Positions 29,088-58,050 of a stretch of 64,000 bases of DNA are shown here, in pieces. Both the position numbers and the translations under genes were made by a program. The stretch is taken from assembly GCA_965261685.1 (NCBI GenBank), contig CBDHDI010000018.1, positions 13,029 through 77,028 of the forward strand, written 5' to 3'. Each line of letters begins with the position of its first letter. Within the stretch, counting starts at the first letter, position 1. The notes beneath the pieces are model-generated. The model ran no database searches. It saw only the letters and a list, made by a program, of their open reading frames with translations, and was not told where the DNA came from. This DNA comes from Dehalococcoidia bacterium (GTDB lineage: Bacteria > Chloroflexota > Dehalococcoidia > UBA2979).

Positions 29088-29106
29088 CCGCTGCAGAGCG
29101 GGACTG

Positions 29107-40830: not shown

Positions 40831-40963
40831 GGGCGACTGCGAAGATTCGCTTGTCCCATCGAGGACGTTGGTCAGCTGGCAGCGCCCCCTGGAAGCAGGA
40901 TGTGCCTTCATGCACCGGGCCCGATGCGCGGCCCACGGAGAGTGCGGATAGAAGCTCGGCACA
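40831..40963 (+). ncRNA. Predicted bridge/seekRNA core (target- and donor-binding loops)
   Basis: Stem GGGCG(A)CTGC/GCAGCGCCC encloses AGATTCGCT, a GTCC/GGAC hairpin and TGGTCAGC, matching both target strands. A second stem TGTGCC/GGCACA encloses ATAGAAG, matching the donor end. Confidence 0.72.
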
Positions 40964-41092
40964 GGCTCCGCTCCCGGACATCACGAGCAGCTCAGCATGG
41001 ACCAAGTGTCGCGCCACGGCGCCACGCCGGACGAGGCCGCCACGTCGGCCTTGCAGAAAGACCGTCCCTCATAGAAGCGATTCTGTCCTTCC

Positions 41093-42637
41093 ATGAAGGA
41101 AGTGACATTGCACCAGCATCAACAGGCACGGCTCCACGTACTCAACAGCGTCCTCGCCGAGGAGATCACGATCGGGCAGGCGGCTGAGTTGATGGACCTC
41201 AGCGAACGCCACGTCCGCCGGCTCCTGGCCGCCTACCGGGAGTTCGGCGCGGGGGCGCTCGCCCACGGCAATCGCGACCGGCGCCCTCACAACGCCGTCC
41301 CCGAGGCCGTCGCGGCTGCCGTCGTGCGCCTCGCCGCCACGCGCTACCCGGGCGCCAACCACACCCACCTCACCGAGCTGCTCGAGGAGCACGAGGACCT
41401 CGCCCTCAGCCGCCCCACGGTGCGGCGCATCCTGACGCGGGCCGGCATGCCCAGCCCGAGGCGGCGCCGCCCGCCACAGCACCGCGTGCGGCGCGAGCGC
41501 ATGCCACGGGCGGGGATGCTGCTCCAGGTCGACGGCAGCCATCACGCCTGGCTCGAGCAACGCGGCCCGCGCTTCGCCCTGCTGCTCGCCGTCGACGACG
41601 CCACGGGCGCCGTCGTGCACGCGCTGTTCCGCCCCGCCGAGGACGCCCGCGGCTACTTCCTGCTCATGGAGCAGGTGCTGCGCCGCTCAGGCATCCCGCT
41701 CGCCCTCTACAGCGATCGCCACGCCGTCTTCCGGGCCTCCGCCCAGCAGCGCGCGGGAGGCGAGGCGTCGACCCAGTTCGCGCGGGCGATGGCGGAGCTG
41801 GGGGTCCGCCTGATCTTCGCCCGCTCACCGCAGGCCAAGGGCCGGGTGGAGCGCATGGCGGGCACGTTCCAGGACCGCCTCGTGACCGAACTGCGCCTCG
41901 CCTCAGCATCCACCATCGGCGAGGCGCAGGCCGTGCTCGAGCGCTTCCTGCCGCGCTTCAATGCGCGCTTCGCCGTCGCCGCCAGCCAGCGCGAGCCGGC
42001 CTGGCGGCCGCTCGACCCGGCACTCGACCTCGGCGCCATCCTCGCCTTCCGGCACACCCGCAGCGTCGCGCGCGACAACACCGTCAAGTACCACTGGCGC
42101 ACGCTGCAGCTGCTGCCCTCAGCGCAGCGGCCCAGCTACGCCGGGGCGCGCGTGGACGTGCTCGAGCGCCCAGGCGGCGAGCTCGCGGTGCGCCACCGGG
42201 GGGAGACCATCCCTTCGCGGCTCGCCCCGCCCCGCTCAGGCGTGCTGCGCGAGCGCCGCTCCGAGCTGGCGCGCGACCCGGCGCTCGAGCGCCTCGCTCT
42301 GGGCCTCGGCTCCGGGGTGGCCCCGCCCGACCAGCCGGAGCTTCCTGCCGCGGCGAACGGGACCGCCGCCAACGGTGCCTCACGGCAGGCCCGGGTCAAG
42401 CCGCTGCGCCCGCCCACCCCGCGCCAGCAGACGCTCTGGAAGGCCATCCGCCAGGCACAACTGCAGGGGCTCTCGATGCGCGCCACCGCCCGCGTGCTGG
42501 GCATCTCGCGCAACACCGTCCGCCGCTATGTGCTCGCCGGCGGCCCACCCGGACGCCAGGGTGCGGCATCATCTACCGAGCAGCGACCAGCGCGAGAGGA
42601 CATTTTCGCTGAACCGTTAAGCGGACAAAGTCGCTGA
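41093..42637 (+). CDS. ISNCY/IS1202-like DDE (rve) transposase
   Basis: LQVDGS, AVDDATG, YSDRH and SPQAKGRVER motifs; C-terminal HTH. Confidence 0.93.
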   Translation: MKEVTLHQHQQARLHVLNSVLAEEITIGQAAELMDLSERHVRRLLAAYREFGAGALAHGNRDRRPHNAVPEAVAAAVVRLAATRYPGANHTHLTELLEEHEDLALSRPTVRRILTRAGMPSPRRRRPPQHRVRRERMPRAGMLLQVDGSHHAWLEQRGPRFALLLAVDDATGAVVHALFRPAEDARGYFLLMEQVLRRSGIPLALYSDRHAVFRASAQQRAGGEASTQFARAMAELGVRLIFARSPQAKGRVERMAGTFQDRLVTELRLASASTIGEAQAVLERFLPRFNARFAVAASQREPAWRPLDPALDLGAILAFRHTRSVARDNTVKYHWRTLQLLPSAQRPSYAGARVDVLERPGGELAVRHRGETIPSRLAPPRSGVLRERRSELARDPALERLALGLGSGVAPPDQPELPAAANGTAANGASRQARVKPLRPPTPRQQTLWKAIRQAQLQGLSMRATARVLGISRNTVRRYVLAGGPPGRQGAASSTEQRPAREDIFAEPLSGQSR

Positions 42638-42782
42638 CCGTCGACAGAAGTGGATCAATGACCCTGGCGATCTCGCCGTTTTCCGGTCTATAGATCCTGG
42701 TGATTCACAACGTCAGCTACCTGCTGCGACACTGAGACCACCGTCACTTGGCGTACACCTGTTCTGGCAGCGCAGGCAGGCC

Positions 42783-42986
42783 TCATGCTATGCCGTCCCT
42801 TCGGATTCGCTCTCCGACGGGCTGCACCCGTTCGTTCGGCGGCGCGTCAGGCCACTCCTCGGGCGAGTGGTCGGCGCAGCGGCCCGGGTGCGTGAGTGTG
42901 CGGCGCGCGATGATGCGTGCCAGGACGCGCAGGCCATCAAGGCGGATCCGTTCCTGCTCGTCGCTCAGTGCTCGCTGCGTCTTCAC
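42783..42986 (-). CDS. Small 'GLRxLARII' family protein, copy C
   Basis: MKTQRALSDEQERIRLDGLRVLARIIARRTLTHP; AGGA upstream. Confidence 0.65.
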   Translation of the reverse strand: MKTQRALSDEQERIRLDGLRVLARIIARRTLTHPGRCADHSPEEWPDAPPNERVQPVGERIRRDGIA

Positions 42987-43322
42987 GCTCGTGTCCTGCG
43001 GACGCGACGCGTCCGCCCTCGATCGCCACTATCATCGCAGAACGCCTGTTCCGCCTGACTCCAGCGTCGGAGATGTAGGACGGCGAGACAATCCCTCCGA
43101 GGGGACTTCATCCGTGAAGCTGTCTCGGAAGACGGGTGGATCGCGGGTCAGCGCGCGTGCGCGCTCGGCTCAACGTCGTGCCGCCGAGTTTGTGAACCTT
43201 CCGCCGCCGCTGCGTCGGAGCGATTGGAGGAGGTGCGGCTGCCCGCCAACAGCGATCGGATCGGCGATCGGACGAGGGTTCAGGCGTTGGTCGCGGTCAC
43301 GATGCTGGACCTCGCGCCGGAA

Positions 43323-45767
43323 CTACTCTATCTGTAGTGCCTGGTAGAACGCAGCGTTGACCTCGAACGACACGTCCCCCCAACCCCGCTCTTCGGCAAG
43401 ATGTTTCGAAACCTCGCGAAGCATGCGCCGCGCATTCTCGTCATCCGAAAATGTATATCCGGTAGCTGTCTGGATCCCCAAGAAATTCACATCACACAGA
43501 AGGTCCAGGTAGAATTCTACGTCCTCCTCTGGGACTTGGGCCCTCTCGATCCGCGATCGCACGTCCGTCTCACTAAGTACCCTGGGTGCACCAGCGAATT
43601 CGAACAGGACCTCCTCCATCCTCTTCCGTTGCGGGTCATCCTCCGCCAAAACGGAACCGAAGACGTAACGAGAATACTTGGTACGCGCTTCCAGCATATC
43701 TTCTGCCGTTACCGCTTCGTGGCTTCTATTGACTGCTGTAGCGATGGCCTCTTTGGTCAGAAAGATCACGTCCCGTGGCCTCGCGAGGGTATTCTTGAAA
43801 ATGAACTCCTTTGCGCTGAGTCCAACCACGCTCTGCGGGAACATGTTCGCCCACACCTCGTCCGCCTCGACTCGCGAACGCCCACCACGAGCCAGTCGCT
43901 CATCAATGACCCGAACCAGTAGGTCGCGGTCATTCCATACGACTCGACGTATTGGCCACTTGTCTTGCTCGCTAGCGAGTGGCGCAATGTATGCAAATAT
44001 GTCACTTCTTATGAAGATAGTCAGAGAGAGATTGACTTTTCTTTGTCGTTGCCTCTCAGCTTGAAAATCGTCAACGATGCTGTTAGTCATTCGCAGCAAT
44101 CCCAAAAGCAGCTCAGAAAGGACTGTCGTTCCTTTGCCAGCGCTCCATTGGTCATCAAGATTATCGATCAGTACTGCGACGCGCTCCTTTTCTGCCAGGA
44201 CCGCGCCTAACATGCGCCGCAGTGGCCCTAGGTGGTTTATGTGGAGATGTTCACTAATCCGAGCACGCTGCTGCTCCACATCGCTTAAGTCGGCGGTCCC
44301 AGAGAGTGCGCCTACGGCGCGATTGACTCGCTGGGAGAAGGGGGATAAGAATATGTCGCTGTTACCTTCGACGTGCTGAACGAACCGCTCCTCATCGTCG
44401 GTTTGCGGTAAGTGAACCGGCCTGCTACGGATCGAACTCAAGACGCTGGCTGCAAGTTCACTGTATAACAGAAACTTCCATAAGCTCTCGATGAGAAAAC
44501 CATGCTCGGCCGTCCGCCAATCCTCGGACAAGAGTCGGATCAGGCCGTCGACTTCGTAACCGACAGGCTTTATCGTGCAGACATGGTTCCGGGTGGAGCG
44601 TCCGAGGGCCTCTTCGAGCGCGATGAAGGCCGCCGTCTTTCCAGTACCGCGGCGTCCGACGAACACAGAGACATCGGACTCCAGCGCGTCGTAGAACGCC
44701 CGTGTCTCCACAAAGTAGTCATCCAGACTCGACCGTTCGTTCTCCGCGACTGGTTCGCCGAGCGACAGGTCGCGGAGCTGTAGGGTTGGCGAACCAGGGA
44801 CGCTTGCGTCCGCCGGTCGTCGCGGACGCCTACGCGGGGGCGCCATAGTGTCTAGCCATGCCTGGAAATGACCAACGGCCTGGTGGGCCGTCTGATGGGA
44901 CTTGAGTAGGGCTTGGTAGTCGGTCGGACACGTGAATGGCGTGTGGGCTAGCATGAGAACGGGCTTTTGCATGCCATGGGCTAGCCCTGCAACGAAGGAT
45001 GCTTTAGCGTTGTGGTTGGACGATTCCACCTGATCGTCCGACAGAAGGTGGATCAGAACTGCATCCGCGTGGCTAATCTTGTCGGCGTACCACTCCAAGG
45101 TTGCGCCGGCGTTCTCTCGAGGATCGTCTAGTATGAGAGAATGGGAAAATACGGATGAATTGATCGCCTCCCGGATAGAGATAACAGATTCAGTATCATA
45201 GCTGGGCTTGACATACAGAAGCGTTGGGAATTCAGAGAGCGGTGTTTGGGCGCGGTACGTCTCAGCGAGCAAGAACTGCTCGGGAGTTGCCCACGGCCGA
45301 TCGCCCAAGAATGCCCGGGCGAGACCCTGATGATTCTCGTATCCGGCGTAACCTGCCCCGAGCATTCCCGTGTATCTGTGGTTGTAGTCTATGGTCGCAT
45401 TGTGAATGGATGTGTCGAGAGATATCCATATCCTCTTGAAGCGGGCTATCGCGTAGCCGAGTTCGAACGCAACGTTGTCGTTGAGATAAGTCACATCACA
45501 GGCGAACATCTGCGCGCGGTCGATATTGCTCGTGATTTCGGGAAGTAGACGCATGCCTGACACATACATGTCTGGCCATGGTCGGAACCGCAGGTTCGCG
45601 GCTTTGACTTGCTGGGAGGAGTTGAGGTCAGCGATAGCCGCGCTGATTGTCTCTGGCAGTGCGAGTGGCTGCGACGGGTAGGCGTAGAATACGTTCTGCC
45701 GCTTCCGAGCCCCCTGCGACGCTTGCCGGCGTTGCGTGCGGGAGCGGCCTCGCCGTCGTTTTGTCAT
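43323..45767 (-). CDS. P-loop ATPase (Sll1717-like) with two N-terminal nucleoside-deoxyribosyltransferase/TIR-like domains
   Basis: VFYAYPS...ACDVTYLNDNVAFELGYAIA; second unit ADAVLIHL...SFVAGLAHGMQKPVLML; Walker A GRRGTGKT; Walker B VLIDNLD; RPRD. Lower GC than flanks. Confidence 0.8.
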   Translation of the reverse strand: MTKRRRGRSRTQRRQASQGARKRQNVFYAYPSQPLALPETISAAIADLNSSQQVKAANLRFRPWPDMYVSGMRLLPEITSNIDRAQMFACDVTYLNDNVAFELGYAIARFKRIWISLDTSIHNATIDYNHRYTGMLGAGYAGYENHQGLARAFLGDRPWATPEQFLLAETYRAQTPLSEFPTLLYVKPSYDTESVISIREAINSSVFSHSLILDDPRENAGATLEWYADKISHADAVLIHLLSDDQVESSNHNAKASFVAGLAHGMQKPVLMLAHTPFTCPTDYQALLKSHQTAHQAVGHFQAWLDTMAPPRRRPRRPADASVPGSPTLQLRDLSLGEPVAENERSSLDDYFVETRAFYDALESDVSVFVGRRGTGKTAAFIALEEALGRSTRNHVCTIKPVGYEVDGLIRLLSEDWRTAEHGFLIESLWKFLLYSELAASVLSSIRSRPVHLPQTDDEERFVQHVEGNSDIFLSPFSQRVNRAVGALSGTADLSDVEQQRARISEHLHINHLGPLRRMLGAVLAEKERVAVLIDNLDDQWSAGKGTTVLSELLLGLLRMTNSIVDDFQAERQRQRKVNLSLTIFIRSDIFAYIAPLASEQDKWPIRRVVWNDRDLLVRVIDERLARGGRSRVEADEVWANMFPQSVVGLSAKEFIFKNTLARPRDVIFLTKEAIATAVNRSHEAVTAEDMLEARTKYSRYVFGSVLAEDDPQRKRMEEVLFEFAGAPRVLSETDVRSRIERAQVPEEDVEFYLDLLCDVNFLGIQTATGYTFSDDENARRMLREVSKHLAEERGWGDVSFEVNAAFYQALQIE

Positions 45768-45960
45768 GAACGATGACCCCCACTCGAGAGGGCGGGCAAG
45801 GCAAGCGCCGCAGCGCTCGAGCGCCCGCACGCACCGCGCCCTGCTCGTCTTGACAGGATATCGGCGAGTGGCAGTGTATTGTAGCCCGAGACAGGCCGCA
45901 TCTGAGGATAGCCTGGACATGCCGGATCCGGACGAGGGCGTCGGGTAGCCGGGAGCGCGG

Positions 45961-45992
45961 GGCGCCGTGGGCGCCGTGGGCGCCGTGGGCGC
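45961..45992. repeat. 9-bp tandem repeat (GGCGCCGTG)x3.5
   Basis: Directly upstream of TAGAAT (45995-46000), in the divergent intergenic region. Confidence 0.75.
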
Positions 45993-46024
45993 GCTAGAAT
46001 GGAGCGGCGCGGGAGCGAGCGGAC

Positions 46025-46603
46025 ATGACGACGACGACCGAGGCGAAGCTGCTGACCGCCGCCGACCTGCTGCGGCTCGACGGCGAGGGCGTGCGCGGCG
46101 AACTGATCCGGGGAGTGCTCTGCGAGACCATGCCGACGGGACAAGTGCACGGCAAGATCGTGACGCGCCTCGTGATCGAACTGGGCGCCTTCGTTGAGCC
46201 AGATGGACTAGGGACGCTGGTCGCCTCGGACTCGGGCGTCTGGCTGGAGCGCGACCCGGACACGGTGCGTGAGCCAGACATCGCCTTCACGTCGGTGGAG
46301 AAGCTCCCTCTGGACGCGTGGAACACGGGCTACGCCGAAGTCATGCCCGACCTTGTGGTCGAGATCGCCTCGCCAAGCGACAGCCGCCGCGAGGTGCACG
46401 ACAAGGCGCGGATGTGGCTCAGTCACGGCGTGCGCCTGGTGTGGGCGGTGCACCCCGGGACGCGCACGGTGGACGTGCACCGGACCGACCACGTCGCGGC
46501 GACGCTCGGCGATCAGGACTCCCTCGACGGGATGGACGTGCTGCCGGGCTTCACCTGCGACGTGAGCGCCGTCTTCGGTCGTCCCGCCCCAGAGCAGTCT
46601 TAA
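46025..46603 (+). CDS. Uma2-family (DUF820) endonuclease
   Basis: ELIRG...H...EPDIAF...PDLVVEIASPSD...K...W...GVRLVW...LPGF. Confidence 0.92.
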   Translation: MTTTTEAKLLTAADLLRLDGEGVRGELIRGVLCETMPTGQVHGKIVTRLVIELGAFVEPDGLGTLVASDSGVWLERDPDTVREPDIAFTSVEKLPLDAWNTGYAEVMPDLVVEIASPSDSRREVHDKARMWLSHGVRLVWAVHPGTRTVDVHRTDHVAATLGDQDSLDGMDVLPGFTCDVSAVFGRPAPEQS

Positions 46604-46614
46604 CAGGAACTAGC

Positions 46615-47043
46615 ATGACCGCGAGCGCGACTGACCCGCCGCTGGCAAGCCAGGGCCGCAGACTTGCCGGGGCCGTGCTCGACGGCCTGATCTTCGTCCT
46701 CACCCTCGGCATCGGCTGGATCGTCTGGTACCTGGTCGCGGCGCGCGGTGGCCAGAGCCCCGCGAAGCGGCTCCTGGGCACGCGCGTCATCCGCGAGGAC
46801 GGCGCGGTGGCCAGCCTGGGCTGGATGCTCATCCGTGACCTCGCAGTGCGTGTCATCGCCTTCGGCGCGGTCAACCGCGTGTTGGTGGCCGTGCTCGGCG
46901 AGGAGGCGGGCGGGGCGATCTACGGGCTCGCCTTCGTCGCAGCGACGCTGTGGTGCGTGTCGGACGCGAACCACCAGTGCCTGTGGAACAAGATCGTGTG
47001 GACGCGCGTCGTGTACGGCCAGCGCGCCCCCGCCAGCGCCTGA
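46615..47043 (+). CDS. RDD-family membrane protein
   Basis: LASQGRRLAGAVLD...GQSPAKRLLGTRVI...QCLWNKIVWTRVV. Confidence 0.85.
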   Translation: MTASATDPPLASQGRRLAGAVLDGLIFVLTLGIGWIVWYLVAARGGQSPAKRLLGTRVIREDGAVASLGWMLIRDLAVRVIAFGAVNRVLVAVLGEEAGGAIYGLAFVAATLWCVSDANHQCLWNKIVWTRVVYGQRAPASA

Positions 47044-47207
47044 GCGGGCCGCCGCAGGATCCTGCCCGATCTCCCGGTATTCGCTGGGATCCCTTCGGCG
47101 CTTCGGCGTACACTTGTTCTGACAGCACACCGAACCTCGCCGAGCCTGTAGGCGAGCAGCGCGGCAGGGCGGCGCCAGTCCGGCCGCGAGACAAGGAGTC
47201 CGAACCG

Positions 47208-48866
47208 ATGACCGAACGCACCGACCCCACCCCGGCAGCCCTCTACGCCCGCGTCTCCAGCGACCGCCAGGACGTCGACCTCTCCGTCGCCGCCCAGCTC
47301 CGCGCGCTCCGCGACCACGCCGAGAAGAACAACTACCTCGTCGTGCGCGAGTACGTGGACGAGGCCGAGAGCGGGCGCGTCGCCGACAGGCCCCAGTTCC
47401 GCAAGATGCTCGACGAGGCGAGCGGCCCGGAAGCCCCGTTCCACGAGATCCTCGTCTGGAAGTTCTCGCGCTTCACCCGCAAGCGCGAGCACGCCGTCGC
47501 CTTCAAGTCGATGCTGCGCCGCCGCGGCGTGCGCGTCGTCTCCATCACCGAGCACGCCGACGACTCCCCCACCGGGAAGCTCATGGAGGCGATCATCGAG
47601 AGCGTGGACGAGTTCTACTCGGACAATCTCGCGGAGGACGTCGTGCGGGGCATGCGCGAGGCCGCCTCGCGCGGCTTCTTCCTCGCCTCGCGCGCGCCCT
47701 TCGGCTACACGCGCGTCAAGGTCTCGGACGGAGCGAAGGAGCGTCCCACCCTCAAGGTCGACCCGGCCGCCGCCCCAGTCGTGCAGGAGGTCTTCGAGCG
47801 CGCGCTGCGCGGGCAGGGCCTGAAGGAGATCTGCCGTGACCTCAACGAGCGCGGCGTCACCAACCGCGGCCGGCGCTGGCAGAAGAACGCCCTCCACTAC
47901 CTGCTCAACAACGAGGCGTACACGGGGACCGCCGTCTGGGGCAAGACGAGCAGGACCGGCAAGACCCCCGACCCGGTGCGCGTCGAGGACGCGTGGGAGG
48001 CGCTCGTCTCCCGGGAGCTGTTCGACCAAGTGCGGCAGGCGCTCAGGAGCCGCGCGCCGGCCATCCAGCGCCCGGCGCGCGTCGGGAGCAAGTTCCTGCT
48101 GAGCGGTCTGCTGCGCTGCGGGCTGTGCGGGAAGGCCTACGTCGGGCAGGGCGCGAAGAGCGGCAAGTACGGCTACTACGTCTGCGCGACGCTGCACCGC
48201 GAGGGCGCGGGCGCCTGCGAGGCGCGCTACCTGAACGCGGAGCGGGCGGAGGGCTTCGTCGTGGAGAAGATCCGCGAGCGCATCCTGACAGACGAGACGA
48301 TTACCGAGCTGGTGACGCTCGTGGCCGAGGAGATCGACGCCATGGCCGGCGAACTCGGCGGGAAGCTGCAGGCGATCGAGGCGGAACTCGCCGACGTGCA
48401 GAGCCGGCTGCTCAGGCTCTACGAGGCGCTGGAGAAGAGCGACCTCACGCTGGAGGCGCTGTCGCCGCGCATCCTCGCGCTCAGGCAGCGCGAGGACCAA
48501 CTCGCGGCGGCGCGGGAGGATGCGGCCAAGCAGCTGACGCAGCGCAAGGTGGAACTGCCAACGAGCGAGGAGATCAAGGCGTACGTGGCGGACTTCCGCA
48601 GCTTCCTGGAGGAGGGGACGTTCCCCGAGCGCAAGGCGCTGATTCGCAACTTCGTGCAGGGCATCGAGGTGACGGGCGACGAAGCCGAGCTGAGCTACAC
48701 GATCCCGATGCCGGCGGGCGGCGTGACGAGCGAGCGGGCGGCGGTTCTTCATTTCGTCCAGTCAGGCCCACCAGACTTGACGGTAGACAGTACCGGGCCG
48801 CCGAGGGCTACCTCCTCGGCCTTCCCGCCGCGCAGGCGACTGTCCTCGGGCATCGGGATCGTGTAG
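47208..48866 (+). CDS. Large serine recombinase 1
   Basis: ALYARVSS catalytic motif, SRFTR, recombinase domain, Zn ribbon CGLCG...YYVC...C and coiled coil. AAGGAG RBS. Confidence 0.95.
   Translation: MTERTDPTPAALYARVSSDRQDVDLSVAAQLRALRDHAEKNNYLVVREYVDEAESGRVADRPQFRKMLDEASGPEAPFHEILVWKFSRFTRKREHAVAFKSMLRRRGVRVVSITEHADDSPTGKLMEAIIESVDEFYSDNLAEDVVRGMREAASRGFFLASRAPFGYTRVKVSDGAKERPTLKVDPAAAPVVQEVFERALRGQGLKEICRDLNERGVTNRGRRWQKNALHYLLNNEAYTGTAVWGKTSRTGKTPDPVRVEDAWEALVSRELFDQVRQALRSRAPAIQRPARVGSKFLLSGLLRCGLCGKAYVGQGAKSGKYGYYVCATLHREGAGACEARYLNAERAEGFVVEKIRERILTDETITELVTLVAEEIDAMAGELGGKLQAIEAELADVQSRLLRLYEALEKSDLTLEALSPRILALRQREDQLAAAREDAAKQLTQRKVELPTSEEIKAYVADFRSFLEEGTFPERKALIRNFVQGIEVTGDEAELSYTIPMPAGGVTSERAAVLHFVQSGPPDLTVDSTGPPRATSSAFPPRRRLSSGIGIV
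48742..48795. other. Putative attP-like recombination site at the convergent recombinase junction
   Basis: 26-bp imperfect inverted arms (17/26 identical) around a CC dinucleotide at 48768-48769. Confidence 0.6.
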
Positions 48867-50353
48867 CGGATCGTGGCGGCGCCGGGGGCGACGGCGATCT
48901 CCTTCACGAACGAGTGGATGAAGGCCTTCGACTCCGTCAACTCGCTCGTCCCGAGGAATTCCCGCATGTCCTCCGCGTAGGCCGTGATCGTGTCCACGTC
49001 GTCGAGCACCTCACGCCGCTCCGAGAGCGCGGCCCGAGCCTCCGAGGCCGCCCGCTCCAGCCGCTCGCGGCGTTCCTTGTGTTCACGCACGCGCGGGAGC
49101 ACGTCGCTGATGTCCAGCTCGGTCGTCTCCATGAGGTGGTAGAGGCGGTCGAGGCGGCGGCGCACGTCGGCCAGCTCGGACTCGATCGTCTCGAGCTGCT
49201 TGCGGCGCTCGTGCGCCACGCCGTCCATCTCCTCGCCGACGAGGCGCACGAGGTCACGGATGTTGGACTCGGTGAGGACGTTGGCGCGGAGCTGGTCGAC
49301 GACGAGGCGCTCGAAGCGCCGCGCGTTGAGCCTCGGGGCATCGCAGGCGCCCCGGCCGCGCTTCATGAGCGACTGGCAGACGTAGTAGGAGAACTTGCCG
49401 CTCTTGGAGTCCTGCCCGGAGAGGGCGCGGCGGCAGCTCCGGCACTTGACGAGCCCGCTCAGCAGGTAGGTGCTGCCGACGCGGCGCGGGTGGGCGCGCT
49501 TCGGCGCGCGGGAGCGCATCAGCGACTGCACGCCCGTGAAGAGCTCCTTCGAGACGATCGCCGTGAAGGCGTCCTCGATGCGCACCGGCGGCGCGCCGTC
49601 CTTCGCGCCCACGCCCCACAGCAGCGTGCCCGTGTAGACGACGTTGGTGAGCAGGATGTGGACGCCGTTCTTGGACCAGGGGCGTCCGGTGGGGTTGGCG
49701 ATGGCGTCGGCGTTGAGGGTGCGCGCGATCTCGGTGATGCCCTTGCCCGCCTCGGCGAGGGCGAAGATGCGCTCCACGACGGGGGCGGTGTCGGAGTCGG
49801 GCTCCAGCCGGGGGCGCTTCTTCGCGCCGTCCTGCACGTAGACCTTCGTGTAGCCGTAGGGGGTGCGGCTGGCGACCCAGAAGCCGCGTGAGGCGGCCTC
49901 GCGCATGCCGCGGGCGACCTCCTGCGCAAGATTTTCCGAGTAGAACTCGTCGACGCTCTCGATGATCGCCTCCATGAGCTTGCCGGTAGGGGAGTCGTCG
50001 GCGTGCTCGGTGATGGAGACGACGCGGATGCCGCGCCGGCGCAGCATCGACTTGAAGGCGACGGCGTGCTCTCGCTTGCGGGTGAAGCGCGAGAACTTCC
50101 AGACGAGGATCTCCTCGAAGGGCGCGTCCTCGGCGCTCGCCTCGTCGAGCATCCTGCGGAACTGTGGGCGGTCGGCGACGCGCCCGCTCTCGGCCTCGTC
50201 GACGTACTCGCGGGCGACGAGGTAGTTGTTCTTCTCGGCGTAGTCGCGCAGCGCGCGGAGCTGGGCGGCGATGGAGAGGTCGACATCCTGGCGGTCGCTG
50301 GAGACGCGGGCGTAGAGGGCGGCGGGGACGGGGTCGGGGCGCTGCTCGGGCAT
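48749..50353 (-). CDS. Large serine recombinase 2
   Basis: ALYARVSS, CRSCR...YYVC...C and coiled coil. N-terminal catalytic domain nearly identical to recombinase 1. Confidence 0.95.
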   Translation of the reverse strand: MPEQRPDPVPAALYARVSSDRQDVDLSIAAQLRALRDYAEKNNYLVAREYVDEAESGRVADRPQFRRMLDEASAEDAPFEEILVWKFSRFTRKREHAVAFKSMLRRRGIRVVSITEHADDSPTGKLMEAIIESVDEFYSENLAQEVARGMREAASRGFWVASRTPYGYTKVYVQDGAKKRPRLEPDSDTAPVVERIFALAEAGKGITEIARTLNADAIANPTGRPWSKNGVHILLTNVVYTGTLLWGVGAKDGAPPVRIEDAFTAIVSKELFTGVQSLMRSRAPKRAHPRRVGSTYLLSGLVKCRSCRRALSGQDSKSGKFSYYVCQSLMKRGRGACDAPRLNARRFERLVVDQLRANVLTESNIRDLVRLVGEEMDGVAHERRKQLETIESELADVRRRLDRLYHLMETTELDISDVLPRVREHKERRERLERAASEARAALSERREVLDDVDTITAYAEDMREFLGTSELTESKAFIHSFVKEIAVAPGAATIRYTIPMPEDSRLRGGKAEEVALGGPVLSTVKSGGPDWTK

Positions 50354-50574
50354 CGGTCACTTTCCCTTCTGGAGCGGGTCTCGCTCACATGGTAACGCAC
50401 CCAGTCACATAGTTGTCGGCTTCCTGTCGCATGGCAGTAAGTGATTTCGGAGATTCGCTGCGGAAGGGGGCTGAAACACGTTGAAGGGCCTCGCTTGCGC
50501 TGCTACGTTTCAGCGGACCAGAACGGTCGTACTCACCCGGTAGCGAGTACCCCTCCCACTACCCGGATAGAGCG

Positions 50575-50775
50575 ATGCGCAGCCGATCCGCAGACCCCCG
50601 ACGCCACCTCACCAAGGAGCAGGACGAACAGCGCCTGCGCGGACTGCGCGCCCTCGCGCGGCTGATCGTGCGCGCCCACCTCGCCGCCGGCGCCGGCGGC
50701 GAGGCGTCCCCCACCGGCGCGCGCGCCGAAGCCGAACCCGAGCCGACCGCGGAGGAGGACCGCCATGCCGAGTAA
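50575..50775 (+). CDS. Small 'GLRxLARII' family protein, copy D
   Basis: LTKEQDEQRLRGLRALARLIVRAHL; first gene of the HTH operon. Confidence 0.65.
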   Translation: MRSRSADPRRHLTKEQDEQRLRGLRALARLIVRAHLAAGAGGEASPTGARAEAEPEPTAEEDRHAE

Positions 50776-51004
50776 GACGGCCCGCTCGACGGTGGAGGTC
50801 AAAGCGCAGGCGGTCTGGGAGCGCATGGCGCGCCTCAGCCTCACCCAGAACGCGCTCGCCCGGCTGCTCGACATCACGTCCGGTCACCTCTCGCTCATCC
50901 TGAGCGGGCGCAGGCGCCCCTCCGCCGCGCTGCGCGCGCGGATGCTGCGCCTGCTCCGCGCCTCCTTCGACGATCTCTTCTACGTGGTGCACCCCGATGC
51001 GTAG
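50765..51004 (+). CDS. XRE/Cro HTH protein
   Basis: LTQNALARLLDITSGHLSLILSGRRRPS...FDDLF; GGAGG RBS. Confidence 0.85.
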   Translation: MPSKTARSTVEVKAQAVWERMARLSLTQNALARLLDITSGHLSLILSGRRRPSAALRARMLRLLRASFDDLFYVVHPDA

Positions 51005-51290
51005 GGCGCCGGCAGCCCCCGAGACGGCCTTCCCGCCCGGCGTGGCGCTCCTCCCGGAGGACTTCGCGGCGCGGCTCGTGGCGGTCAAGGAGCGCACCGG
51101 CCTGCCCTGGGAGCGGATGGCGGTCTGCATGGGCGTGGATCCCCGCCAGCTCTGGCGCTGGCGCCAGGGCGCCTCGCCCGGCGGCGGCGCGATGCTCTCG
51201 CTCGTGCGGCTCGCGACGCTGGTGCCCGGAGGTCTGGCCGCGCTGCTGGGCGAGGAGCTGATCGTCGTGCGCCCGGAGCGGAGGCGCTGA
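50997..51290 (+). CDS. HTH protein
   Basis: LPEDFAARL...GLPWERMAVCMGVDPRQLWRWRQG. Confidence 0.75.
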   Translation: MRRAPAAPETAFPPGVALLPEDFAARLVAVKERTGLPWERMAVCMGVDPRQLWRWRQGASPGGGAMLSLVRLATLVPGGLAALLGEELIVVRPERRR

Positions 51291-51604
51291 TGGGACGCCG
51301 TCAGCAGCACGTCTACCACACCGAGCCGGCGCGCTTGCCGCCGGACTTCCCCGAGCGCCTCGATCGCCTGCGCCGCGAGGCGGGGCTGAGCTGGCGGGGG
51401 CTGGCGCGGGCGCTGCGCGTCGACGTGCGCACGCTGCGGCGCTGGCGCAACGGCACGGCGCCCGGCCCCGGCCATCTCTACGCGCTGATGGTCTTCGCAC
51501 TGGAACGCGGCCTCCTGCACTGCCTGCTGCCGGGCGCGGCGCTGCTCGTCGACGAGGCCGAGGCGGTACCGCCGCGGCTGCTCCCGAAGGGCGACACCCC
51601 GTGA
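51290..51604 (+). CDS. XRE HTH protein
   Basis: DFPERLDRLRREAGLSWRGLARALRVDVRTLRRWRNG; paralogue of the preceding gene. Confidence 0.8.
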   Translation: MGRRQQHVYHTEPARLPPDFPERLDRLRREAGLSWRGLARALRVDVRTLRRWRNGTAPGPGHLYALMVFALERGLLHCLLPGAALLVDEAEAVPPRLLPKGDTP

Positions 51605-51891
51605 GCGCCTCGAGGCGGCGGCGCGAGCGGATGCGCGTGCTGGTCGGGGCGATCGCCCGCTACCGGGCCAGGCACGGCTATGCGCCGAGCATGCGCGAAC
51701 TGATGAGGGCGACGGGGCTCTCCTCCACCTCCAACGTGGCGTACTGGCTGGACGCGTGCGAGCGCGCGGGCCTGATCGTGCGTGCGCCCCGCCTGGCGCG
51801 CGCGGTGACCCTGACGGCGGCGGGAGAGGCCATCGCCGGACCGGCCGCGGAGGAGGCAGCGCCGCCCGCGGCCCAGGGGCGTGCGGCGTAG
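51601..51891 (+). CDS. Stand-alone LexA-type winged-helix DNA-binding domain
   Basis: HGYAPSMRELMRATGLSSTSNVAYWL...GLIVRAPRLARAV; no S24 peptidase domain. Confidence 0.85.
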   Translation: MSASRRRRERMRVLVGAIARYRARHGYAPSMRELMRATGLSSTSNVAYWLDACERAGLIVRAPRLARAVTLTAAGEAIAGPAAEEAAPPAAQGRAA

Positions 51892-51922
51892 CGGCGGCCC
51901 CGCGCGCGGGGCTGCGCCCGGT

Positions 51923-52291
51923 TCAGCTCCCGGCGCGGCGTTGCCTGCGCCGCTCCGACTTCACGAAGCGGATGTAGTTGCGGATCGACTCGATGTCCTC
52001 CATGGGGAGGCCGCTGACGGCGTCGCGGAATGAGACTTCGGCTTCCCTGAGCATCTCCGCCTCCGCCTCGTCGCGGCCCTCGAGCGCCGCGACGCTCGTC
52101 GCGCAGTGGTAGGCGATCGCGGCGAGGTTCGCGTGGTTGGGCTTCATCCGCCCGGCCTCCCAGCACCAGACGCTGTGCGGGCGCACGCCGACGAGCTCGC
52201 CGAGGCGCTTCTGCGTGAAGCCGGCGCGCTCGCGGGCCACGCGCACGCGCGCGCCGAACTCCTTCCAGCGGTAGCCGCCCGCTGCTGTCAT
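51923..52291 (-). CDS. XRE-family repressor
   Basis: FGARVRVARERAGFTQKRLGELVGVRPHSVWCWEAGRMKP; GAGGAG RBS. Confidence 0.88.
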   Translation of the reverse strand: MTAAGGYRWKEFGARVRVARERAGFTQKRLGELVGVRPHSVWCWEAGRMKPNHANLAAIAYHCATSVAALEGRDEAEAEMLREAEVSFRDAVSGLPMEDIESIRNYIRFVKSERRRQRRAGS

Positions 52292-52729
52292 CCGCTCCTC
52301 CTCGGGCCGCTCCCCGCCCGCTTCATGATAGAAAGTCCGTTCTCGCTGTTGCGATGGCATGCAGCGCATAGCGTAGACCGCAGCCACGGGGCTGCTCGCG
52401 TCCGTGCCTGCGGGCGCCCGCGTGACGGCCGATCGGCGTGGCGCCGGACGACCCGGAAGGCGGCTGCGGGCAGGCGCTCTCGCAGCGGCCTGCGCGGCTC
52501 GGCGAAGTGCCGCGGGGCGGGCGATCCGCTCCGCTACCCGATCCAGTATGCAATATCACAGAACGTGCGTGCTATCATGACTCCGCTCCGCCCGGGGGCG
52601 GTCGCGATCGGGTATACGGGGACGTGACCATGCGGGTGGCGGCGTTGTCCGTCGAGAGCGCCGCCGGCGTTCGCCGTGAGCTCCGTGATCACCGCGAGCA
52701 CGCATGGCAGACCAGCCAGGAGGAGAGCC

Positions 52730-53941
52730 ATGCAACGAGACCACGAGGCGGAGGATGACCGCCGCTCACCCGGGGGCGACGAGTTCCCCAACCTGCTGGA
52801 GACCCTCACTTCAGAGGAGCTGCGGCAGATGCTGGAGCGCGTGAACGCCGACCTCGCGGCCAGCCCCGATGATGTCGATTCGCTCTGCGTACGAGGCCTC
52901 CTCCACCAGCGGCTGGGCGACGACCGCCGCGCGAAGGAGGACTTCGGCAGGGCGCTCCAGCTTGCCCCGGGCAACGCCGAGGCCCACCGCTACCGCGCGC
53001 ACGCCAGCGCCGAGCTGGGGGAGCACCAGACGGCGGTGGGGCACTACGACATGGTCATCCAGCTCGAGGCGGGGGATGCCGTCACGCACTACAGCAGGGG
53101 CGCCTCACTCGCTGAACTGGGCGATATGGCCGGCGCGCTGCGGGACTTCGACAGGGCCATCGAGCTGAGCCCCGACGACCCGGACGCGTACTACAACCGG
53201 GGCTGCACGTACGCCGAGCTGGGCGAGCCGGACAGGGCGGTGGAGGACCTGAGCCGGGCGATCGCGCTCTCGCCCCGGCTCACGCTCGCGTACCACCACC
53301 GGGGTCTCGCCTACCGCGAGCTGGGGGAAGCGGAGCAGGCGATCAGGGACTTCGGGGCCGCCATCGAGCTGGAGCCGGTCAACAACGTCTCGCGCTACGC
53401 GCGGGCGGTGTCCGAGCTGCAGCGCGGCGCGCACGACTTCGCGCTCAGGGACCTCGACGCGGTGCTGGCCGTCGACCCCGACAATGCCGAGGCGCTCCAT
53501 GCTAGGGGGATCACGCTCGGCGCCCTGGACCGGCCCGACGACGCGATCGCGGACTTCGACCGGTCGTTGCTGCTCGATCCCGACAACCCCGTGACCCTCG
53601 CCGCGAGAGGGTTCGCGCACGACAACCTCGGTCAGTACGACCGCGCCGTCGAGGACTACACGCGGGGCATCGCGATCGACCCGGCCGACCGCAGGGTGCG
53701 CTTCGCCAGGGGAGTCGCCCGCATGTATCTCGGCGCCGACGAGGAAGCGATCGAGGACTTCAACGCCATCCTGGAGGTCAACCCCGACGAACCAGGCGCC
53801 CTCTACGCGAGGGGGGTGGCCCGGCAGTCGCTGGGGAGGGACGGCGAGGCGGCCGAGGACTTCGACAGACTCTCCGAACTCGCCCCGGAGGAAGACCCTC
53901 GAGGCGACGCTCCTGGACTCCCGCCCGACGCCGACGCATGA
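52730..53941 (+). CDS. TPR-repeat protein
   Basis: About ten AYYNRG...A..DF.RAIEL.P repeats; AGGAG RBS. Confidence 0.92.
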   Translation: MQRDHEAEDDRRSPGGDEFPNLLETLTSEELRQMLERVNADLAASPDDVDSLCVRGLLHQRLGDDRRAKEDFGRALQLAPGNAEAHRYRAHASAELGEHQTAVGHYDMVIQLEAGDAVTHYSRGASLAELGDMAGALRDFDRAIELSPDDPDAYYNRGCTYAELGEPDRAVEDLSRAIALSPRLTLAYHHRGLAYRELGEAEQAIRDFGAAIELEPVNNVSRYARAVSELQRGAHDFALRDLDAVLAVDPDNAEALHARGITLGALDRPDDAIADFDRSLLLDPDNPVTLAARGFAHDNLGQYDRAVEDYTRGIAIDPADRRVRFARGVARMYLGADEEAIEDFNAILEVNPDEPGALYARGVARQSLGRDGEAAEDFDRLSELAPEEDPRGDAPGLPPDADA

Positions 53942-54069
53942 CTGTCACGCGAGCCTGCCGGCGTTGCAGTCTCCCTACGGCAGGAACAGCCGGCATGCCG
54001 ACGCCGCCTCGCGCGAAAGGGGTGCGCCCGTCCTCCGCGTCGCTCTCGTCCTGAGGCCGGTCGCACCGG

Positions 54070-54170
54070 CGCTCCGACGTGCTGATCGCTGAACCGGGCG
54101 CCGGCAAGACAACGGCATTCGAGTCCGAGACCCGTGGCGTCCGGGGCCGGTTCTCACGCAAGGGCGCCTA
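54070..54170 (+). pseudogene. Relic of a P-loop (NACHT-like) NTPase N-terminus
   Basis: Translates as VLIAEPGAGKTTAFESE; no surrounding ORF. Confidence 0.35.
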
Positions 54171-54309
54171 CGGGTTACCGGACGGCTGGGATCGCGCCGT
54201 GCGACAGCAACGTGCGGAACGACGAGAGGGGCTGTCGTTCCGCACGTCGTAGGGCATCGCGCAACCTCCCCCAGTGCACAGCCGGAAGAGTTTCCCGTCT
54301 TGTCGCCCC

Positions 54310-55956
54310 TTACTGACCCGGCCCGCTGACGGTCATCTCCAGCCTGTTGGACAGCTTCTTGTCGTCCTGCGTGCAGATGGCGCCTGCCGGGGCGCAGTGC
54401 GTGGGTATGGGGAGCACGATGGTCACCGTCCCGTCGCCGTCGGGCTGGAGGGTTATCTCCCATCCGGCGTTCTTGCCCCTCTCAAGCCGCCGTGCCTTGA
54501 TCACCTCGCCTGCGGTGACGTCGAAGGCGTGGTCCCGCAGGGTCTTGTAGCTGAGGCCGAATTCCTCGCTGAAGCGCAGTTCGAAGGTGAAGGCGGCGTT
54601 CCCGTCGTGGCTGGCGGGGACCTGGCTCGTCCGGGCCGTCAGCGCCTCCTGCCGGGCCACGGTGGCCGAGACCGCCCGCGCGAGGGGCTGTTCGTTCGCG
54701 CACACGGCGTTCGCCCCGGCGCAGTCGCGCACGGGAAGCGTGATCGTGACGTCGCCTGCCTGTGTCGGCTCCACCGTCACCTCCCAGCGCTTGCTCCGAT
54801 CGGCGCCGTTCGGGTCCAGCCTCCTCGCCCCGGTCACCTCGCCGCCGCTCACCTCCAGGATGTCGTTGACCACTGTCCTCCAGCTCGTCACCGCCACCTT
54901 GTTGAAGTACAGCTCGAAGGTGAACGCCGTTGCGCCGTCGTGGTGGTCCGGTACGTTCCTGAACTCGGCGGTGAATGGCGTGATGGCCGCCGCCACCGGC
55001 GCCGTCGCCGCGCTGGTGAGAATCTCTGGGTTGCCGGCGTCATCGTCGAAGGTCACCCGGACCTTGACGGCTTGCCCCTGCTCGCTGGACGTGAGGGTGT
55101 GGCTGGACCCGGTGGCGCCGGTGATGTCGGCCGTTCCGGCGATCCACTGGTAGGTGAACGCGGCGTTGGCGGTCCCGTCGGCGTCGGATATGCCGGCGGT
55201 GGATGCGGTCAACGTCCGGCCCACCTGGACAGTGCCGGTGATGGTGGGGGCGCCCGTAGCCGGGGTGTTCGACTGTTGCTGGTTCCCCTGACGTGGGACA
55301 GCGACCTCCACGGCGCTGGACAGCATCCTGCCGTCTGGTGTGCAGATGGCTCCCTGGCCGGTGCAGTTGGTTGTTGCGGGGAGGGACACGGTCACCCCGG
55401 CGTCTCCGTCCGGCTCCACGGTGATTTCCCACCCCATGCTGCTGGGAGGATTCAGACGGCTGGCGTTCACGATATCACCGCCCGTCACCGTGAAGGCATG
55501 GTCCTGCAGCGTCTTGTAGCTGATTGAAAACTCCTCACTGAGGCGCAGCTTGAAGGTGAATGCGGTCTGCCCGTCATGGGAGTCCGGCGCGTCGTGAATG
55601 GTGGCGGTCAGCGGCGGCAGGGCCACCGCGAACGTCGCTGCACTGATGAGCTCCTCGCTGTTGCCCGCGTCGTCGGTGAATCTCACCTTCACCTTGATGC
55701 TCTTGCCCTGCTCGCCGGACGTGAGGGTGTGGCTGGACCCGGTGGCTCCGGCGATGTCTGCCGTTCCGGCGATCCACTGGTGGGCGAAGGTGGCCAGGGT
55801 CAGCCCGTCGGCGTCGGATATGCCCGACGTGTCCGCCGTCAACGTCTCCCCCACCTGGGCCGTGCCGGTGATGGCGGGCGCTCCGGTGGCCGGGCTGTTG
55901 GCGGCCTCCTTGTCCGGCTCCTTCGGCTCGCTGTTCTGCGACCGCGGCCCGGACAC
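54310..55956 (-). pseudogene. 5'-truncated surface protein with repeated Ig-like modules
   Basis: Two ATGAP.ITGT.QVG.TLTA.T.GISDADG modules and three P.SHDG..AFTF.L modules. No signal peptide; abuts the IS1111 fragment. Confidence 0.75.
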
Positions 55957-56004
55957 CGCCTTCCCGGCATGCGAAAGATCGGCGTCTACGCTCGTGGACT
56001 GGCT

Positions 56005-56422
56005 GCGCGCTTCTTCGCGTTCCGTGCTCCTGTTCCCGCGTAGCGCTCACCCCAGCGACGCAGATCGGTATCCGGCCCGAAGGGACCGAGGATGTAGTGC
56101 GCAGCCTGCACCAGCAGCCGGCGTAGGCCTGCGTCGCCGCTCTTGCCGATGCCGAGTTGCGGCGCGCGCTCGCCCGAGTCGCGCTGCCGCGGCACGAGCC
56201 CGAGGTAGGCCCCCACCTCACGGTTCTGCGGGAAGCGCCCCGGGTTCTCGATCGTCAGCACGAACGTGAGCGCGGTGATCGGCCCCACGCCGGTGACCTG
56301 GCGCAGCGCCGCGGTCTCGGGGTGGGCCTCGCACAACGCCTCGACCTCCCGCCCGGCCGCCGCGATGCGCACGGTCAGCTCGCCAATCGCCTCCACCAGC
56401 GGCAGCAGCGCCGGGCGCAGCC
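56005..56422 (-). pseudogene. 3' fragment of IS1111 transposase (partner of 62888-63459)
   Basis: LRPALLPLVEAIGEL...NAKKRA; homologous to 39630-40718. Truncated before the stop and the non-coding region. Confidence 0.88.
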
Positions 56423-58050
56423 TGTCGACGAGCAGCGATTTCGTCAGTGCAAGAGAGCAGCGACTTTGTCAGTCCCGCCGTCTCCGTCGGAGGATGCCGC
56501 GGTGCCGGTCTGGCGTCCAGGCACGCCGTTGGCCCGGACGTAGCTGCTGACGGTGTCGCGGGAGATCCCGAGCAGCCTGGCGGTTGCCCGCATCGAGAGT
56601 CCCTGTAGCCGCGCCTGCTGGATCGCCTTCCAGCGGGCGCGCTGTCGGGGCGTGGGTGGGCGGAGCTGCTTGCTCCCGGGCGCGGGCTTCACGGCGGCCC
56701 CGTTGGGCGCACCCTCCGCCGCCGGGACGGCAGGCGCCACGGGGAGCCGCCGGGGTGCTCCTCCGGAACCGAGCCCTGAGGCGATGCGCTCGTGGTCGGG
56801 GTTCCGGGCCAGCTCGGAGCGCGCCGCCCTCAACACCCCGGCGCGCGGCGGCGCCTCGCGCGAGGCGATCGTCTCCCCCTGGTGCAGGACGGAGAGCTCG
56901 CCGCCCGGCCGTTCCAGCACCTCGACCCGTGCCCCGGCGTAGCTGGTCCGCTCGCGCCCGGGCAGCAGCTGGAGCGTGCGCCAGCGATACTTGACCGTGT
57001 TGTCGCGGGCGACGCTGCGGGGGTGCCGGAAGCCGAGGATGGAGGCGAGCGGGAGCGCGGGGTCGAGCGGGCGGTAGGCCACCGCGGGCTCTGCCGCAGG
57101 GACCCGGAAGCGGGCGTTGAAGCGCGGCAGGAAGCGCTCGAGCACGGTCTGGGCCTCGGCGATGGTGGAAGCCGAGGCGTCGCTGAGTTCGGTCACCAAC
57201 CGGTCCTGGAACGTCCCTGCGGCACGTTCCACGCGGCCCTTCGCCTGCGGTGAGCGGGCGAAGATCTGGGTGATCCCGAGTTCCCGCATCGCCCGTGCGA
57301 ATTGGGTTGCGACCTTCAGGCCCCGCCGTCCGTCGGAGGAGGCTTTGAAGACGCCGTGGCGGTCGCTGTAGAGGGCGAGCGGGATGCCGCAGAGCCGGAC
57401 GATCTCCTCCAGCAGGAGGAAGTAGCCGCGCGCGTCCTCGACGGGGCGGAAGAGGGCGTGCACGGCTGCGCCGGTCGCATCGTCGACGGCGAGCAGCAAG
57501 GCGAAGCGCGGACCGCGTTGCTCGAGCCAGGCGTGGTGGCTGCCGTCGACCTGGAGCAGCATCCCCTCGCGGGGCATCCGCTCACGCCGGACACGGTGCT
57601 CGGGGGGCCGGCGGCGGCGGGGACTCGCGATGCCGGCCCGCGCCAGGATCCGGCGGACGGTCCAACTGCTCACGTCCAGGTCCTCGTGCTCCCAGAGCAA
57701 CTCGGCGAGGTGGGTGTGGTTCGCTCCCGGGTAGCGGGTGCTGGCGAAGCGCACCACGGCCGCGGCGACGGCGGCCGGGACGGCGTTGTGCGGACGGCGC
57801 CCGCGGTTGCCGTGCTCCAACGCGGCGGTTCCGCGCGCACGGTAGGCGGCGAGGAGCCGCCACGCGTGTCGCTCGCTGATGCCCAGGATCTCGGCGGCCT
57901 GCGAGGCCCGCAGATCTCCGGCCATCACCCCTTCGAGTACGTAGCGTCGTGCTTCTTCGGACTGCTGCACCTGTCACCCCCTGCTCGCTGGCTGGGGACT
58001 GACAGAATCGCTGCTCCGTTAACTACTGACCGAATCGCTGCTCAACGACA
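56423..58050 (-). mobile_element. ISNCY/IS1202-like element (second subtype)
   Basis: Ends TGTCGACGAGCAGCGAT and ATCGCTGCTCAACGACA with internal repeats. Confidence 0.92.
56444..57970 (-). CDS. ISNCY/IS1202-like transposase
   Basis: LQVDGS, DDATG, YSDRH and PQAKGRVER motifs. Confidence 0.93.
   Translation of the reverse strand: MQQSEEARRYVLEGVMAGDLRASQAAEILGISERHAWRLLAAYRARGTAALEHGNRGRRPHNAVPAAVAAAVVRFASTRYPGANHTHLAELLWEHEDLDVSSWTVRRILARAGIASPRRRRPPEHRVRRERMPREGMLLQVDGSHHAWLEQRGPRFALLLAVDDATGAAVHALFRPVEDARGYFLLLEEIVRLCGIPLALYSDRHGVFKASSDGRRGLKVATQFARAMRELGITQIFARSPQAKGRVERAAGTFQDRLVTELSDASASTIAEAQTVLERFLPRFNARFRVPAAEPAVAYRPLDPALPLASILGFRHPRSVARDNTVKYRWRTLQLLPGRERTSYAGARVEVLERPGGELSVLHQGETIASREAPPRAGVLRAARSELARNPDHERIASGLGSGGAPRRLPVAPAVPAAEGAPNGAAVKPAPGSKQLRPPTPRQRARWKAIQQARLQGLSMRATARLLGISRDTVSSYVRANGVPGRQTGTAASSDGDGGTDKVAALLH

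Follow-up and report, generated by a model that had tools for sequence, protein, structure and literature searches.

Why should the genes of two large serine recombinases run into each other tail to tail, so that each ends inside the other and both ends fall on one palindrome-like sequence? The question is raised by a stretch of 64,000 nucleotides (nt) from a Dehalococcoidia bacterium (the window), which corresponds to C18:13029-77028 of the source genome G000 (28 contigs, 4.1 Mb, 3.8% contamination) and holds two intact recombinase genes, RecA (47208..48866, plus strand, with an open reading frame that extends upstream to 46950) and RecB (48749..50353, minus strand). An earlier note on this DNA had described a tail-to-tail overlap of 118 bp between these paralogs, which the open reading frames confirm (48749-48866), and had read it mainly as the attachment (att) site of a single element with two integrases, offering the junction of two tandem islands as a fallback. 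It is the fallback that has held up. The locus is very probably the seam of two independently mobile islands, A and B, that entered a single tRNA-Ala(GGC) gene at its 3' end one after the other, a reading carried by separate partner arms, three direct repeats of the tRNA end, and empty and B-only states of the same site in related genomes. The arm comparisons show that a separate pair of 19-bp inverted arms marks the two ends of either island, and that either island encodes a single large serine recombinase, with one of the arms formed by roughly the last eight codons of its gene.

RecA of island A (552 aa) and RecB of island B (534 aa) share the layout of large serine recombinases. The N-terminal resolvase domain (PF00239; E 1.9e-32 and 2.9e-33, respectively), the recombinase domain (PF07508) and the zinc beta-ribbon (PF13408, Zn_ribbon_recom) follow one another above the Pfam cut-offs in both proteins, and both contain the motif YARVSSDRQ, the first serine of which we take to be the nucleophile. 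For a coiled-coil insertion in the zinc-ribbon domain the one sign is a helical CheZ match at RecB residues 365-486, which remains below threshold at 20.3 bits against a cut-off of 30.7. The closest solved relatives of the two proteins are the SPbeta-type and TP901-1 integrases, and the best NCBIfam match of each is CcrB (NF047343, an equivalog with its cut-off at 900 bits), at scores of 153.8 and 136.9 bits. RecA and RecB are 58% identical overall, with 88% identity over residues 1-160 and 51%, 53%, 38% and 40% in the later segments, in keeping with the earlier description of near-identical catalytic domains joined to diverged DNA-binding and coiled-coil regions. The same profile was seen among all family members compared (82-94% over residues 1-160, mostly 38-60% in the remaining segments), and the uniformity of the catalytic domain reflects unusually strong conservation or, possibly, exchange between paralogs. 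The last conserved residues are VLHFVQSG in RecA and VLSTVKSG in RecB. Past this point RecA continues for 30 aa of antisense RecB sequence and RecB for 6 aa (GPDWTK) of antisense RecA sequence, and each stop codon sits past the core of the palindrome, within the opposite gene, as the note had said.

The two conserved ends meet on a 54-bp pseudo-palindrome (48742-48795) whose arms are complementary at 17/26 positions around a CC dinucleotide (48768-48769) and whose GC content is 0.56, compared with 0.70 and 0.71 in the 300-bp flanks; the string is exactly as it had been quoted. Symmetry of at least 17/26 around a 2-bp core occurs at just 19 of 63,946 positions in the window and by itself is suggestive, not decisive. 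The pseudo-palindrome does exceed chance, because the same 19-bp arms recur in non-coding DNA here and in relatives. Reading from left to right, it consists of armA, GGTTCTTCATTTCGTCCAG (48743..48761, plus strand), which is the right-end arm of island A and lies within the final RecA codons; a central 14 bp, TCAGGCCCACCAGA (48762..48775, plus strand); and armB, GGTACTGTCTACCGTCAAG when read on the minus strand (48776..48794), which is the tRNA-proximal arm of island B and lies within the final RecB codons. The site thus has 19-bp imperfect inverted arms around a 14-bp centre, and the arms, both coding and non-coding, recur in G000 and five relatives. The caution that part of the symmetry comes from paralogy was well placed. 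An inverted repeat of 24 nt (48694..48717 and 48844-48867, 92% complementary) consists of the YTIPMP codons shared by both paralogs, and on this comparison it is a product of paralogy lying outside the att site.

Each of the two coding arms has a non-coding partner of its own. An intact tRNA-Ala(GGC) gene lies at C18:11983-12058, 970 bp to the left of the window. The tRNA is followed by GA and then, in non-coding DNA two bases past the gene, by CTGGACAAAATCGAGAACC (armA', C18:12061-12079), the reverse complement of a RecA-type arm that matches RecA's own arm at 16/19 positions. The corresponding RecB-type arm (armB') lies on another contig, at C11:20005-20023, has one mismatch to armB (18/19) and is followed by TCAGGCCCACCA and then ACCACCCAACCGC, with host flank beyond. 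Between the A and B types 12/19 positions agree, a divergence that parallels that of the DNA-binding domains, and RecA and RecB would each be expected to bind their own two arms. The end of the tRNA is present in three direct copies, because its final 12 nt are found at the tRNA itself (direct repeat DR1, TCAGGTCCACCA), at the seam of RecA and RecB (DR2, TCAGGCCCACCA, 48762-48773) and beyond armB' on C11 (DR3).

The resulting layout runs from tRNA-Ala and armA' through island A to RecA and armA, then DR2, then armB at the end of RecB, and on through island B to armB', DR3 and host DNA. Island A occupies C18:12059-61796 (window 1..48769, plus strand), measures 49.7 kb and starts 969 bp to the left of the window. 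The proximal part of island B (48768..64000, minus strand) extends past the end of the window and of the contig to a presumed far end at C11:20023; contig C18 ends in multi-copy insertion sequence (IS) DNA, and therefore island B spans a contig gap. RecA sits at the tRNA-distal end of island A and reads away from the tRNA, whereas RecB sits at the tRNA-proximal end of island B and reads towards it. With island A lying between the tRNA and island B, the two genes therefore collide tail to tail, and each runs to the first stop codon in the other. The C-terminal tails of both proteins would then be read-through by-products of the junction, and the 54-bp site is, on these alignments, a hybrid that joins attR of island A to the tRNA-side att site of island B by way of armA, the 12-nt copy of the tRNA end and armB.

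The same site was sought in other genomes by searching 40 relatives with the left (tRNA-side) flank and with the C11 flank, and the tRNA-Ala flank was inspected in seven of the other genomes. In the same-genus genome G017 the site is empty, the tRNA end ...TCAGGTCCACCA being joined directly to ACCACCCAACCGCAGGC so that the junction reads ...CCCCCTCAGGTCCACCA|ACCACCCAACCGCAGGC; C11:20036 onward is therefore true host flank. In G019, also of this genus, the same tRNA end leads into AA+CTTGACGGTAGACAGTACC and a RecB that is 95% identical over residues 28-526, and 3,741 bp comprising RecB and the adjoining helix-turn-helix (HTH) genes are 94.4% identical in nucleotide sequence to island B of the window. 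The other five flanks hold other inserts, among them a small one with an A'-type arm in G009 and one with a B-type arm in G007, and an A-only state was found in none of the seven genomes. Stepwise accretion predicts just this set of states at a single site (empty, B-only and A+B), and they favour an order in which B arrived first and A then inserted at the tRNA end and the arm of RecB.

The homology of occupied and empty sites breaks at the core, within CCACCA (48768-48773), whether judged from G017, from G019 or from the three repeats of G000 itself. The check that the note had proposed, a break at the core with other DNA beyond it, thus had a positive outcome in relatives as well as in G017 and G019, and its placement of an att-type site on or near the CC at 48768-48769 agrees with both the break and the recurring arms. 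The interval is bounded by a T/C difference on its left and a GA/AC difference on its right when DR1, DR2 and DR3 are compared with the empty site. Large serine integrases cut at the dinucleotide in the centre of symmetry of the site, and the cut would fall within CCACCA, likeliest at the symmetric centre CC (48768-48769). An attempt to pin the cut dinucleotide from the repeats narrowed it to these six bases; the CC of the CCA end (48771-48772) is also compatible with them. The element would supply the terminal ACCA of the tRNA, which therefore stays whole and is called as such by aragorn. The distance of the motif GGTTC from the core is 14 nt on the tRNA side but 20 nt in armA, a shift of 6 bp. 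Recombination activity and the exact crossover point are inferred from these alignments. Logan contigs from public runs, examined for excision or other junctions, are all short, and among the pieces listed none crosses the RecA/RecB junction. Two contigs of one run (X1; ~91% and ~95% alike) lose their match at 48762-48772, which agrees with a breakpoint in some relative and is uninformative on excision here.

How general this arrangement is was judged from the 80 best relatives of RecB, all of them from Dehalococcoidia/Tepidiformaceae assemblies and many from single-record chromosomes, which were sorted by what adjoins their conserved 3' end. A tRNA gene is abutted tail to tail by 38/80, with ten specificities represented (Met, Ala, Ile, Val, Arg, Gln, Leu, Lys, Ser and Glu); L020 and L068, for example, have RecB-like genes directly at tRNA-Val(GAC). 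A convergent recombinase is faced by 17/80, which is RecA-like in 14 cases (one a remnant of 36 aa) and RecB-like in three. Other DNA, either non-coding arms of several types or host DNA, adjoins 23/80, and the remaining two comprise one at a contig end and one without a 3' end. A transfer-messenger RNA (tmRNA) gene abuts 0/80 in an aragorn search of these flanks that included tmRNA, and the tmRNA gene of G000 lies on another contig (C27:722306-722660). The tRNA-like centre is reversed in ~10/80 relatives, and the family has therefore changed orientation in the course of its history; with islands lying either way round, their integrase genes can collide.

Further copies in G000 include two full RecA-like genes (C27a and C26a), another that is frameshifted and lies at a contig end (C26b) and a RecB-like fragment on C28, and all of them end in V-x-x-V-Q/K-S-G before diverging fully. 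At the DNA level the 19-bp arm GGTTCTTGATTTCGTCCAG and its variants are conserved in these copies and similarity ends a few bases later, and therefore the att site lies within the last codons of the gene while the sequence that follows depends on location. The eight C-terminal codons of the integrases appear to be constrained by the DNA site that they double as, the arms being equally conserved where they are non-coding. The arm pattern was also scanned, with up to three mismatches allowed and the reversed pattern as control, in five chromosomes (G001-G005) picked because they carry the RecA/RecB pair, and it occurred 15-38 times per chromosome compared with 0-7 times for the control. Coding arms are followed by TC(C/A)GGCCCACCA and non-coding arms, in the opposite orientation, by TCTGGTGG.... 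In G002 a RecA-type island of ~24.3 kb terminates at a non-coding arm that abuts tRNA-Val(GAC), and in G001 one of ~18.9 kb (if the record is circular, across its ends) terminates at a non-coding arm that abuts tRNA-Met.

These distributions bear on the main inference of the earlier note, that RecA and RecB belong to one element whose junction is an attP with one half-site supplied by each gene, so that integration would part the genes to opposite ends. The convergent pair does share the same junction in the 14 relatives with a RecA-like partner, the identities of the two partners drop in step (for example 91%/88% and 76%/74%), and L095, L109 and L112 have junctions of two non-coding arms (armB' | armA'), in arrays whose outer ends could hold the recombinase genes. 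Yet either arm is paired with a non-coding one at the opposite end of the island it belongs to, and the junction is chromosomal, lying between tRNA-Ala and a host flank for which an empty site is known. RecB-type genes occur alone at tRNAs, as in the 38 relatives above and at this very tRNA-Ala in G019, and RecA-type genes occur without a RecB-like partner in C27a, C26a and G006. An excised or episomal form, which the note had considered for the attP, finds no counterpart in the contig either, since C18 is not circular: its ends were compared and are without overlap, the right one lying in multi-copy IS DNA. Taken together, a single element with two integrases is very improbable.

That the seam is a chimeric join of two recombinase contigs in a metagenome-assembled genome is hardly credible. 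The assembly is in 28 contigs with some contamination and the arms are repeated in the genome, which could invite such a join, but the same junction is found, with the core identical base for base, in 13 other assemblies, several of them single-record chromosomes.

Several points weigh against successive, independent insertion, or against the order proposed for it. What links C18 to C11 is the arm, the repeat and the G017 empty site, and more islands could sit in the gap. Three of the five chromosomes with a pair (G003-G005) have their nearest A-type arm of suitable orientation at a distance of 24-37 kb, where no tRNA lies beside it; it adjoins another arm type or unknown DNA. The polymorphisms of the repeats say little about order, as both orders predict the same sequences, and the two bases after ACCA are AA in G019 and GA in the window. 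It is possible that island A came first to tRNA-Ala and that B then inserted into its distal junction with the tRNA-like 3' end of RecA as target. This would give an identical final sequence at all three repeats, and the 3' end of RecA does resemble the reverse complement of a tRNA acceptor and T-arm, as is found beside RecB relatives. The B-only state in G019, with its 95%-identical RecB and 3.7 kb of shared island, argues for the opposite order, as does the lack of an A-only state among the seven other tRNA-Ala flanks inspected, the insert of G009 being a different, small one with an A'-type arm. On balance the reverse order is unlikely.

The remaining point is the frequency with which RecA-type ends face RecB-type ends. 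Besides the 14/80 relatives of RecB, a coding RecB end is faced by two of four same-genus orthologues of RecA (86-89% identical), the other two facing a degenerate B-type arm and other DNA, respectively. Such frequent pairing could mean a non-random association and not plain accretion. Alternatively to chance accretion, therefore, RecA-type islands may prefer tRNA sites already occupied by a RecB-type island, with the RecB arm serving as the second half of attB, or the two enzymes may cooperate on a hybrid site. The inner bases of armB (CTTGAC) are far closer to those of armA' (CTGGAC) than is the virgin flank (ACCACC), and the enzyme of whichever island arrived second must have accepted the arm of the other as half of its target. 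However, some RecA-type ends adjoin plain host-like DNA (L101, L149) or tRNA-like fragments (C27a), and the five genomes of the arm scan were preselected for the pair. We consider directed insertion of this kind a possibility, though a fairly unlikely one. A stronger version, in which RecA-type islands are specialised second-comers that land preferentially on the last codons of a resident RecB plus the tRNA end, and in which the seam, made up of two attP-type arms, is possibly worked by one dimer of each enzyme, is more doubtful still; if it were true, two paralogous serine integrases would jointly decide the exit of one island or of the whole array.

The locus can be set beside several known systems. 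In phages such as phiC31, Bxb1 and A118/LI, large serine integrases use an attP of ~50 bp with imperfect inverted arms and a central dinucleotide, and the zinc-ribbon motif is shifted by ~5 bp between attP and attB. The attP of these phages lies outside the integrase gene, and their targets are protein-coding genes or intergenic DNA. RecA and RecB resemble these enzymes in their three-domain structure, and the 6-bp shift of GGTTC, which lies nearer the centre on the tRNA (attB) side, echoes the phage shift. They differ in that one arm consists of the integrase's own last codons and the target is the end of a tRNA gene. The recombinases of the staphylococcal cassette chromosome (SCC), CcrB, CcrC and CcrA, are the best-scoring curated families; they too are serine recombinases that move islands, and the 3' end of a conserved gene is where they act. 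The present family is distinct from them in scoring 137-154 bits where the equivalog cut-off is 900, in having no CcrA partner and in its target.

The closest precedent, in which the same principle is at work, is provided by the ssrA islands of Dehalococcoides (McMurdie et al. 2011, PMC3146451). These islands stand in tandem and are bounded by direct repeats of the 3' end of an RNA gene; their integrase gene overlaps attL and finds its stop codon only inside the neighbouring island, and the large serine recombinase at the island edge, DsiB (~540 aa), is CcrB-like (PMC3146451). The islands described here come from the same bacterial class and share the type of recombinase, its location at the edge, the 3' end lying over att with a stop codon past the boundary, the tandem arrangement with direct repeats and the best NCBIfam match to CcrB. 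They differ in target, which is tRNA-Ala(GGC) here, with ten specificities among relatives, and ssrA (the tmRNA gene) in Dehalococcoides; in the position of the crossover, which falls in the last six bases (acceptor end plus CCA) here and in the T-loop there; and in the length of the direct repeat, which is 12 nt here and 20 nt there. The six-gene integration module of the ssrA islands (the small second serine recombinase DsiA, RecF-like, ParB and Mom proteins, among others) was not seen beside RecA or RecB. Islands occur in both orientations here, whereas the account of the ssrA islands, as far as seen, is without colliding integrases (PMC3146451).

A further parallel is found in the tycheposons of Prochlorococcus, which target tRNA genes, build islands by repeated insertion and form tandem junctions, and of which 27/937 carry a large serine recombinase (bioRxiv 10.1101/2020.12.28.424599). 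Unlike the present family, tycheposons are mostly tyrosine-recombinase elements, and gene-embedded arms or colliding integrases are not described in that report, as far as seen. In the texts that a search of a limited body of literature made available, neither serine-integrase islands of Tepidiformaceae that target tRNA genes nor integrase genes that collide are described.

Accretion of islands at a tRNA gene explains the striking overlap of RecA and RecB, which as a single locus is ordinary. Its value is that of a clean, fully bounded example, in which a tRNA site is found empty, with one island and with two islands in a single genus. The family behind it is large and undescribed, and consists of Dehalococcoidia islands with serine integrases whose insertion point is the extreme 3' end of many different tRNA genes. 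With it the 2011 observation on Dehalococcoides ssrA islands now covers tRNA genes as targets and islands of either orientation. Genomes reveal the att arms directly and so furnish natural attP/attB pairs for many related integrases, of use in studies of specificity and in annotation, where gene callers otherwise report variable integrase C-termini and overlapping genes.

Island A holds many IS elements, together with a TmtA-like gene, genes for large surface proteins and a Uma2 gene. The TmtA match (PADLOC, best E 1.9e-63) belongs to a 1031-aa protein with Sacsin and NOV_C domains (977-4072, plus strand), a candidate defence gene of the island. Two surface-type proteins of 1168 and 1780 aa (17136-20642 and 21970-27312, plus strand) contain fn3, cadherin-like, LRR and InlB B-repeat domains. 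Beside RecA lie the Uma2 gene and, three open reading frames upstream, an 865-aa open reading frame (43323-45920, minus strand) that has no Pfam or PADLOC match and a GC content of 0.57-0.59 compared with ~0.70 around it, and which is likely foreign cargo. RecB is followed at 50765-52387 by five small genes of the HTH/LexA DNA-binding domain kind; the products of its neighbours comprise four proteins with such domains, one small protein without a match and a tetratricopeptide repeat protein. Both islands hold several copies each of IS21-type (IstA/IstB), IS110-type and DDE_Tnp_1_4 transposases, the same IS copies cause the contig breaks of the assembly, and a group II intron-type reverse transcriptase is encoded at 60916-62646.

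Other arms and remnants are scattered through G000. On C28 (C28:107775-108193) a decayed RecB-like fragment comprising ~residues 362-469 and the arm abuts tRNA-Lys(TTT) tail to tail and runs straight into its reverse complement; by this arrangement it is a remnant of an older island. The RecA-like gene C26a ends in a near-perfect palindrome of arm, 15 bp and inverted arm (C26:455723-455775). It was considered as an intact attP and rejected, since the conserved non-coding end of another element lies beyond the palindrome, which is better read as a seam in an array, where a recombinase arm meets the non-coding end of an adjacent element. Arms that lack a recombinase gene (orphan arms) occur at C27:314936-317313, where an A-type arm lies directly against tRNA-Met and a perfect B-type arm, 2.3 kb away, is followed by TTAGGTCCACCA; a further orphan A-type arm at C27:767209 is followed by sequence resembling a tRNA end. 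Relatives also have a third type of arm, GTAC..T/A..TGCGAAC with TTTCGGTGGGAGG after it, which is met repeatedly past RecB-like ends and beside A-type arms (L032, L035, L043, L065 and L123) and points to one or more further element families in these arrays. At L095 (G003:C1:1570967-1571107) a mini-element of ~70 bp, hardly more than a B-type arm flanked by two repeats of a tRNA end, lies between the end of a RecA-like gene and the arm of the next island.

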